A DNA stretch of 64,000 nt from Escherichia coli. GTDB taxonomy: Bacteria > Pseudomonadota > Gammaproteobacteria > Enterobacterales > Enterobacteriaceae. Of the stretch, positions 1 through 61,396 are shown piece by piece. The stretch is from NCBI RefSeq assembly GCF_044647545.1, contig NZ_CP172818.1, one strand, 5' to 3'. Position numbers and translations under genes: made by a program. Numbering within the stretch: the first letter of the stretch is position 1; the number at the start of each line of letters is the position of its first letter. The notes under the pieces are model-generated. The model did not search any database, had not been told where the DNA came from, and was given only the letters and a program-made list of their open reading frames with translations.

Positions 1-1358
1 GAAGTAAACGCGGCGTGCCCCGGGGTGTCCAGGAAGGTGATCATGCCGTTTTCAGTTTCAACGTGGTATGCACCAATGTGCTGGGTAATGCCGCCCGCTT
101 CGCCAGAGGCCACTTTCGTTGAACGAATGTAGTCCAGCAGAGAGGTTTTACCGTGGTCAACGTGACCCATGATGGTCACAACCGGCGCGCGCGGTTCAGC
201 CGCTGCACCCGTGTCACGGTCGCTCATTACCGCTTCTTCCAGCTCGTTTTCACGACGCAGAATAACTTTGTGGCCCATCTCTTCAGCAACCAGCTGTGCG
301 GTTTCCTGATCGATAACCTGGTTGATGGTTGCCATTGCGCCCAGTTTCATCATCGCTTTGATGACCTGAGAGCCTTTAACCGCCATCTTGTTCGCCAGTT
401 CGCCAACGGTGATGGTTTCACCGATCACAACGTCACGGTTAACGGCCTGAGCAGGCTTCTGGAAGCCTTGCTGCAGCGAAGAACCTTTACGTTTTCCGCC
501 TTTACCGCCACGTACTGCTGCGCGTGCTTCTTCACGATCAGCTTTTGATTCAGCGTGTTTGTTGCCTTTCTTCGGACGCGCAGCTTTCGCGTTACGACCA
601 CGGCCACGGCCGCCTTCGACTTCACGATCGCTTTCGTCTTCTGCCTGGCGAGCATGTTGAGAAGTAGTGACGTGATAATCGCTGGAATCTTCAGTCGGTT
701 CCGCGTTATCAGTCCATTTGTTTTCTTCCGCCATACGACGTGCTTCTTCAGCAACGCGACGTGCTTCTTCTTCGAGTTTACGACGCGCTTCTTCTTCGGC
801 TTTACGCTTGAGCTCTGCAGCTTCCTGCTCACGGCGGGCTTTTTCAGCCTGGGCGTTTTTAGTCATATCGTCTTGTTGATTGCTCACTTTGTCTTTTTCC
901 GCAGCTTCACGTTTCGCTTGTTCAGCAGCTTCGCGCTTAGCTTGTTCTGCGGCCTCACGTTCAGCTTTTTGTTGCGCCTCACATTTGGCCGATTCTTCTG
1001 CCTCACGACGGGCTTGCTCTTCCGCTTCACGCTGCGCTTGCTCTTCCGCAGCAAGGCGTTCAGCCTCTTGCGGATCGCGTTTCACAAAGGTGCGTTTCTT
1101 GCGGACTTCGATTTGTACCGATTTGCTTTTTCCACCGGTACCAGGAATGTTAAGGGTGCTGCGTGTTTTACGTTGCAGCGTCAATTTGTCCGGGCCTGAA
1201 TTTTTCTGATTCAGGTGGTCAATCAAAGTCTGTTTCTCTTGTGCAGACACAGAGTCGTCAGCAGACTTCCGGATACCTGCATCAGCAAATTGCTGTACCA
1301 GGCGTTCCACGGAGGTCTGTCGCTCTGCGGCCAGCGTTTTAATCGTTACATCTGTCAT
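1..1358 (-). CDS. infB: Translation initiation factor IF-2, N-terminal ~452 codons; gene continues beyond window start
   Basis: Minus-strand frame from ATG at 1356-1358 translates [16 protein letters not shown]..., recognised as the IF2 N-terminus; missing from ORF track because it runs off the window edge; low-complexity A/E/R/K repeat region. Confidence 0.9.
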
Positions 1359-1382: not shown

Positions 1383-2870
<1,488 letters not shown>

Positions 2871-2897: not shown

Positions 2898-3350
2898 TTA
2901 AAAGTGGGGAACCAGGTTCGCCTTCTGGATATTACTCAGCGCGAACACTTCATCTTTACCTTCGACGGTAACTGTGATCATTTCACCGTCTACCGCTTTG
3001 ATAACGCCCTGCCATTTACGACGGTTTTGTACCGCCATGCGGAGAACCAGAGTCACCTCTTCTCCGACGAAACGGGCGTAGTGTTCAGCCGTGAACAGTG
3101 GGCGATCGAGACCCGGTGAGGAGACTTCCAGGTTATAAGCAACGGTGATGGGATCTTCAACATCCAGCACAGCACTTACCTGGTGGCTCACATCAGCACA
3201 ATCATCAACATTGATGCCATCTTCACTATCAATATAGATGCGCAGTGTGGATGTGCGACCGCGAATAAATTCGATGCCAACCAGTTCAAAACCCAGGGCC
3301 TCAACTGGCGCAGTAATCATCTCTGTTAATTTTTGCTCTAATGTGGACAA
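2898..3350 (-). CDS. rimP: Ribosome maturation factor RimP
   Basis: ORF contains ...[27 protein letters not shown]...; start placed at an in-frame TTG to give the 150-aa form; located between metY and nusA. Confidence 0.85.
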
Positions 3351-3367
3351 GCCCACCCCCAAGACAT

Positions 3368-15739: not shown

Positions 15740-15750
15740 TCAAAAAGAAA

Positions 15751-15769
15751 CCCCGGCACATGGCCGGGG
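15751..15769. terminator. GC-rich hairpin in the 33-bp gap between convergent dacB and obgE
   Basis: ccccggc-acat-ggccgggg inverted repeat; no strong T-run, so terminator function is tentative. Confidence 0.3.
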
Positions 15770-15772
15770 TGA

Positions 15773-16960
<1,188 letters not shown>

Positions 16961-44375: not shown

Positions 44376-45788
<1,413 letters not shown>

Positions 45789-45909
45789 GGTGTTCTGGAA
45801 AGCGCCTCGCATAATCTGAAGAAAACCAATGTAATACGCACATCTGGATTGTTACCGGCCGATGCAGATCCCGGCGTATAGCTGATTCCATTATTCAACA
45901 CTGCGCCAT

Positions 45910-61365: not shown

Positions 61366-61396
61366 CAAAAAACCGGAGTCTGTGCTCCGGTTTTTT
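61366..61396. terminator. Bidirectional rho-independent terminator between convergent degS and mdh
   Basis: aaaaaa-ccggag-tctgtg-ctccgg-tttttt. Confidence 0.55.

Follow-up and report, generated by a model that had tools for sequence, protein, structure and literature searches.

The window analysed here, a stretch of 64,000 nucleotides of E. coli DNA, opens on a gene with an imperfect tandem repeat. Is this repeat kept for the sake of the protein or of the nucleic acid, how often does its number of units change between strains, and what is to be made of a cysteine codon found within it? The repeat, the helix that it encodes and the adjoining isoform starts are already known, textbook features of E. 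coli infB. What is new is quantitative: a census of natural alleles that differ in unit number, together with the junctions found in them, evidence that selection on the protein maintains the repeat, and the placing of an Arg to Cys change at residue 126 (R126C) as a rare recurrent variant that is probably neutral. Overall, we consider it highly probable that the locus is the known helix repeat of IF2 domain I, held in place by selection on the protein, with rare unit changes based on microhomology and with R126C as a near-neutral variant.

The genes at this end of the window are the following:

1..1358, minus strand: 5′ part of infB (IF2 codons 1-452), from translation and Pfam, with the ATG at 1358..1356
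1383-2870, minus strand: nusA, beside infB
2898-3362, minus strand: rimP, beyond nusA

Judged from its sequence, the repeat-bearing gene is infB, which encodes the bacterial translation initiation factor IF2. The gene is incomplete in the window, its reading frame leaving via the window start. In the 452-residue translation, Pfam finds IF2_N (PF04760, two stretches, 96 bits), IF2_assoc (PF08364, 63 bits) and GTP_EFTU (PF00009, 34 bits, the domain being clipped where the window ends); each of them exceeds its curated cut-off. The translation is the same as the RefSeq protein WP_000133044.1 at 451 of 452 residues, R126C being the sole difference. Around the repeat, 659 nt match infB in 5,425 of 5,426 complete RefSeq E. 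coli genomes; the matching DNA, 99.8% identical over the 659 nt, is annotated infB by RefSeq. The operon context metY-rimP-nusA-infB is present, with tRNA-Met (metY) and argG next, as in an annotated relative.

K-12 DH1 and the ST648-like strain FDAARGOS_497 share the same 890-aa IF2 (WP_000133044.1), and their DNA differs by about 2% over a 241-nt stretch of the repeat, every change being synonymous. This comparison shows an extreme conservation of the IF2 protein, its “low-complexity” part included.

The features of the repeat itself are given below:

885..1052, minus strand: seven in-frame 24-nt units, encoding octads of the form EAxExAxR (IF2 residues 103-158), from repeat detection and coding register
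1012-1025 and 1036-1049, gene on the minus strand: a 14-nt direct repeat, the longest exact one in the block, with copies 24 nt apart, reading GCTTGCTCTTCCGC on the plus strand
909..956, minus strand: two REAAEQAK-type units (residues 135-150), the site of most natural copy-number changes (from two units to one or three)

The original prediction had placed tandem repeats at 880-1080 in the part of the gene that encodes the N-terminal region of IF2. These repeats are real: the predicted range brackets 885-1052 and the peptide quoted with it is exact. In order, the octads are AAEEQAQR / EAEEQARR / EAEESAKC / EAQQKAER / EAAEQAKR / EAAEQAKR / EAAEKDKV. Tandem Repeats Finder reports two arrays of period 24, one at 893-967 (3.1 copies, 78% matches) and the other at 994-1049 (2.3 copies, 84% matches), with scores of 87 and 77, and a separate repeat search recovers a 7-copy family with a spacing of 24 nt. 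The window strain thus has the standard seven units, with no change in copy number. At the nucleotide level, the self-identity of the block is 0.69 at a lag of 24 and 0.60 at a lag of 48, compared to 0.29-0.44 at other in-frame lags. When the codons of the block are shuffled, the identity at lag 24 falls to 0.38 +/- 0.04 (z = 7.5), and none of 5000 shuffles reaches 0.69.

What the repeat encodes has been described by NMR: in work of Laursen et al. 2003/2004, summarised by Gualerzi and Pon 2015 (PMC4611024), residues 2-50 form a compact subdomain, residues 51-97 are irregular and residues 98-157 form the domain I helix, in a region that is mobile. An AlphaFold2 model of the N-terminal part, for which we used a small alignment of enterobacterial sequences, agrees with the NMR work that the block is one continuous helix. 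It predicts a beta-hairpin at 58-92 and an uninterrupted 62-residue helix at 96-157 (pLDDT of 83-90 for the block), followed by a break at 158-165 and a second helix at 166-216. Accordingly, of the earlier description of this segment as “low-complexity”, the charged and repetitive character stands, but the segment is an ordered octad-repeat helix (PMC4611024 and the AlphaFold2 model) rather than a featureless one.

The helix ends at two internal starts (PMC10486304, PMC12297416):

885..887, minus strand: GTG codon 158, internal start of IF2-beta (IF2-2), the codon that closes the seventh octad
864..866, minus strand: ATG codon 165, internal start of IF2-gamma (IF2-3)

The 120-residue region predicted as helical (96-157 and 166-216) is interrupted only once, exactly at the eight residues between GTG158 and ATG165. 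With the helix break coinciding with these starts, the octad helix is the last part of domain I and belongs to IF2-alpha only. NusA binding has been assigned to residues 1-50 and to the 57-90 beta-hairpin (PMC12297416). From the predicted structure, we infer that the octad helix may serve as a spacer between this NusA-binding module and the ribosome-binding body of the factor.

The composition of the segment (Glu 27%, Ala 25%, Arg 14%, Lys 10%, with hydrophobics at about 3% Leu) goes with a marked charge pattern. Over residues 98-215, pairs of opposite charge number 37 at i,i+4 and 25 at i,i+3, compared to 12-13 at i+1 and i+2, and the helix segment has no hydrophobic heptad seam. Such a pattern is the signature of a putative stable solitary helix. 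Single alpha-helix (SAH) spacers of the ER/K type exist in myosin VI/X and caldesmon. The infB segment resembles them in being rich in E, R, K and A, in its excess of charge pairs at i,i+3 and i,i+4 and in its predicted long continuous helix, but its Ala and Gln content exceeds that of canonical ER/K motifs, and NMR reports mobility. We therefore use the comparison in the sense of “works like” and not as a claim of membership, the monomeric stability of the IF2 helix being a prediction. The picture of a rigid solitary helix may also be too simple, because of the mobility reported by NMR and because a preprint describes the entire N-terminal region as intrinsically disordered and as the driver of a cold-induced condensation that it finds lost in the beta isoform (10.1101/2025.02.02.631968). 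The segment corresponds to the K-12 domain I helix (98-157) in gene, residue range and all seven octads, the 452 residues of the window being identical bar R126C; the differences are Cys126 and a few synonymous changes typical of another phylogroup.

The codon that sets the window apart is the following:

981..983, minus strand: codon 126, TGT (Cys), which reads aca on the plus strand and results from a C-to-T transition at 983 on the coding strand

A cysteine had been suspected here where K-12 has arginine, and it is real in the sequence: codon 126 is TGT in the window versus CGC in K-12. FDAARGOS_497, the closest complete genome, has CGT at this codon; strains named ST648 and IMT16316 fall into its group. 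It matches the window throughout the first 45.8 kb apart from the codon-126 base, which is the only substitution, and a 6-bp indel. Arg occupies octad position 8 at residues 110, 118, 134, 142 and 150 and, in the reference, at 126, where its i-4 neighbour is Glu122.

We searched the 71-mer around codon 126 in 5,423 complete genomes and found no exact match with either TGT or TGC. That R126C is unique to this sequence is nonetheless ruled out by an identical full-length protein elsewhere: WP_000133044.1 with R126C occurs verbatim in a collection of 15 billion proteins, under several GenBank accessions and on 20-23 or more contigs. Four carrier loci could be read. All have TGC, and they represent four different K-12-like haplotypes with 17-35 differences from the window over 3.6-4.4 kb. 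With TGC in these haplotypes versus TGT in the window, R126C arose at least twice.

Is the TGT codon a real allele, or could it be a sequencing or assembly error or some other artefact specific to this record? The absence of the R126C codon, in either spelling, from complete genomes would fit such an error, as would the TGC found in all four of the other carriers read, whose haplotypes are unrelated and leave TGT unconfirmed in the ST648-like background. The window also has further private changes at hairpin-forming sequences with respect to otherwise identical relatives. At 15745-15775, between dacB and cgtA/obgE, the hairpin CCCCGGCACATGGCCGGGG is followed by TTTTGC in all close relatives, and the window is without these 6 bases (15769), so that the dacB-side intrinsic terminator has lost its T-tract; this shortened form has no single contiguous match in any complete E. 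coli genome. Around 45784, the 3′ end of gltD lacks about 73 nt compared to the closest genomes: the downstream GC-rich hairpin is deleted and GltD ends six residues early (466 versus 472 aa, with MNWLEV lost). Just past this deletion, a palindromic element carries an SNP at 45860 and a 5-nt insertion at 45865-45869. The altered gltD end (45784-45870) is absent from all complete genomes searched. Together, these private oddities hint at a lower-quality or altered record. The change at codon 126, however, is a single clean transition in non-homopolymeric coding sequence, which is not a typical assembly error, and R126C is viable and circulates elsewhere, on at least 23 contigs of other lineages. 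Moreover, the codon was read in 4 carriers, and the 19 further carrier contigs could include the haplotype of the window. On balance, we regard an artefact as unlikely, and a real allele as the better reading of the TGT codon.

As a separate observation on the same record, FDAARGOS_497 has an IS4 between degS and mdh where the window, at about 61376-61387, has an empty site. This empty site adjoins a terminator-like hairpin, AAAACCGGAGTCTGTGCTCCGGTTTTTT.

If R126C is a real allele, it may be adaptive, that is, recurrently selected in the helix specific to IF2-alpha for an effect on NusA coupling or on cold-induced condensation, or for its reactive thiol. In favour of this reading, the change has originated independently at least twice (from CGT to TGT in the window and from CGC to TGC elsewhere), and four further haplotypes carry it. 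To place the frequency of R126C, we looked up ten comparable Arg substitutions in the same protein collection as controls. Eight are present: R118C (9 contigs), R142C, R150C and R126H (6 contigs each), R126G and R110C (2 contigs each), and R117C and R126L (1 contig each). R134C and R126S are absent from the 15-billion-protein collection. R126C is thus the commonest of the 11 substitutions looked up (20 contigs versus 0-9), at two to three times the best control. Nevertheless, its frequency is of the order of the controls, and a mild bias of selection or mutation may contribute; with 8 of 10 arbitrary controls also present in the collection, any tolerated transition is expected to recur at such sampling depth. 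The absence of R126C from the 5,423 complete genomes also speaks against recurrent selection, and so does the position of the reported NusA contacts, which lie in residues 1-90, outside the helix (PMC12297416).

Other genera point the same way. In a cross-genus alignment, the equivalent of position 126 is Gln in Plesiomonas and Lys in Gilliamella. Plesiomonas IF2 has a Cys at the equivalent of Arg134, in the next octad (AAKCAAQEQ), so a related genus does tolerate a Cys at position 8 of an octad. We therefore judge an adaptive R126C very unlikely. Based on the sequences compared, R126C is most likely a rare, recurrent and nearly neutral polymorphism.

The same cross-genus alignment is small because most of the sequences found by homology to the N-terminal 306 residues were fragments. 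Within it, the octads are conserved across Enterobacterales and the indels look like whole-unit changes. Two IF2 fragments labelled Vibrio parahaemolyticus are nearly identical in this alignment to Proteus mirabilis IF2, probably as a result of contamination or mislabelling in the source records.

Next, we investigated how often the number of units changes within E. coli. Megablast is unable to span a 24-nt gap, so we ran gapped blastn with a 241-nt query against 5,425 complete genomes. Among these, 26 fall below 95% identity over the 241 nt, as expected for an indel of about one unit, and synthetic queries with -24 and +24 nt brought the variants to the top of the ranking. In this way, we assigned 23 unit-number alleles (0.4% of the genomes), which leave 2-3 of the 26 low-identity genomes out. 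Nineteen alleles were read as sequence; those of Z1323PEC0008, ETEC4079, IAL7250 and AST198 were assigned from match span and identity. All changes are in frame, and RefSeq annotates the variants as intact infB of 882, 898 or 858 aa. The expectation that such repeats would be prone to slippage and length polymorphism between strains is therefore borne out, at a low frequency, and a comparison of the infB N-terminal region across strains finds both unit-number and point variation.

The 23 alleles comprise 10 with -24 nt, 12 with +24 nt and 1 with -96 nt. They fall into at least nine distinct junction types, each at a microhomology of 5-14 nt. The ten -24 nt alleles (882 aa) show four kinds of junction: fusion of the two REAAEQAK units into a hybrid with the join inside GAACAAGC, loss of the second REAAEQAK unit with the join inside CGTGAAGCTGC, loss of the first REAAEQAK unit, and a hybrid of units 1 and 2 joined at the 14-nt repeat. 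The twelve +24 nt alleles (898 aa) show five. In strain N68, the -96 nt allele, four units are gone and the join is at GCGTGAAGC. The 14-nt repeat (1012-1049), the longest exact repeat in the block, is also the join of natural -24 and +24 alleles of units 1 and 2, found in ETEC4077, N18-04097, BS74R-D and XJ5.2.

The carriers are diverse and include camel O157, avian O78, porcine ETEC and human cerebrospinal-fluid isolates from unrelated countries. The same junctions occur with different flanking SNPs in unrelated hosts and countries, which argues for many independent events. Some of the unit-number alleles could be assembly artefacts. The collection shows that the domain I helix tolerates gains and losses of 8 residues, and even a loss of 32.

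One further candidate deletion allele, the Nissle 1917 record CP007799, was rejected as probably an assembly artefact. Its octad region is aberrant (NZ_CP007799.1, 5112477-5112993; EAEEQAKREAQQKAKREAQQKAKR...) and the query hits this record at three sites. We take it as a misassembly because the repeat is aberrant and infB is annotated as an incomplete pseudogene.

With the variation described, we asked at which level the repeat is kept. Keeping the protein fixed, we resampled its synonymous codons according to codon usage in infB and nusA. The lag-24 identity expected from the protein repeat and codon usage is 0.66 +/- 0.02, compared to 0.69 observed (z = 1.1). Similarly, residues repeated 8 positions apart use the same codon at 16 of 31 places, for an expectation of 15.3. 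Homogeneity of the DNA beyond what the protein requires, as would be left by recent duplication, concerted evolution or gene conversion, was thus not detected by codon resampling. Since the observed identity is close to that predicted from the protein, the repeat is kept by selection on the protein. This result is a demonstration that the DNA periodicity is wholly a shadow of protein-level selection.

A nucleic-acid role of its own could still be proposed for the repeat, either as an mRNA structure that tunes internal initiation of IF2-beta and IF2-gamma or as a hypermutable tract of the contingency type. Its appeal lies in the position of the block, which terminates at the GTG158 start, and in the sequence around both internal starts, which is open and would be compatible with an internal ribosome-loading site. 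The 141 nt of mRNA around these starts fold slightly worse than shuffles (z = +1.5), as do the nearest 60-70 nt, and both starts are unpaired in the centroid fold; such open mRNA is compatible with an accessible internal initiation site, and no evidence of designed structure was seen in these folds. Against the proposal, the periodicity is fully accounted for by the protein repeat and codon usage, and folding of the repeat RNA reveals no significant structure compared to shuffles (z = -1.5; 11 of 200 shuffles fold as well). As for a contingency tract, the infB repeat shares with phase-variable contingency loci a tandem repeat within a gene, whose copy number is altered by slipped-strand mispairing. 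Unlike in those loci, however, the unit is imperfect and 24 nt long, so that slippage is never frame-shifting, and variants make up just 0.4% of strains with no on/off switching. Indeed, no frame-shifting or on/off unit change was found among the variants, each of which is a multiple of 24 nt and annotated as an intact infB. We thus give a nucleic-acid role little credence.

Protein-level selection on the repeat then accounts for the observations as follows. The repeat encodes a long hydrophilic alpha-helix (about residues 96-157) in IF2 domain I, present in full-length IF2-alpha only. In this helix, the seven E-A-x-E-x-A-K/x-R units place opposite charges densely at distances of 3 and 4 residues, as expected of a stable solitary helix. 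It sits between the module reported to bind NusA (1-50 and 57-90) and the rest of the factor and ends where the GTG158 and ATG165 internal starts are located. Selection acts on the protein periodicity and leaves synonymous positions to be randomised between units, as a result of which just 5-14-nt exact matches are left between neighbouring units. From the junctions, we infer that these leftover microhomologies would permit occasional slipped-strand mispairing or unequal exchange. The outcome is always whole 24-nt units in frame, each of them 8 residues or about 12 Angstrom of helix, and such changes are tolerated. R126C is one C-to-T transition at an Arg in octad position 8, removing a single i-4 Glu-Arg pairing.

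A bolder version, in which R126C is positively selected and alters an IF2-alpha-only activity or redox sensitivity while the 8-residue gains and losses tune the reach of the tether, is highly improbable, and if true R126C would affect NusA-mediated transcription-translation coupling, cold-induced condensation or DNA-repair-related functions. Under protein-level selection with a near-neutral R126C, the natural unit-number alleles and R126C are nonetheless possible probes for functions specific to IF2-alpha, such as NusA coupling, cold adaptation and genome maintenance.

Finally, a second repetitive block lies next to the octads:

723..806, minus strand: repeats of 21/24 nt (EEARR type), IF2 residues ~185-212 in domain II, from Tandem Repeats Finder

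Natural in-frame deletions are found in this block as well: one 883-aa IF2 is without VAEEARR and one 882-aa IF2 is without KLEEEARR. Spontaneous in-frame deletions in domain II, together with one duplication, are known from lamotrigine resistance (Stokes et al. 2014, PMC4371806). Delta17 removes residues 176-192 (PMC10486304) and Delta8 maps to the same region. These resistance alleles resemble the octad variants in being spontaneous, viable in-frame gains and losses that arise readily in the repetitive charged N-terminal region of infB. They differ in lying in domain II (residues 158-290, at about 490-885 in the window) and not in the domain I octads, and in having been selected in the laboratory by the drug at 15 degrees C. 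The likeness is closer for the natural 883- and 882-aa alleles, which delete 7-8 residues in the same domain II block. Because they share this region with the resistance deletions, natural isolates with domain II deletions might, by analogy, be lamotrigine-insensitive.
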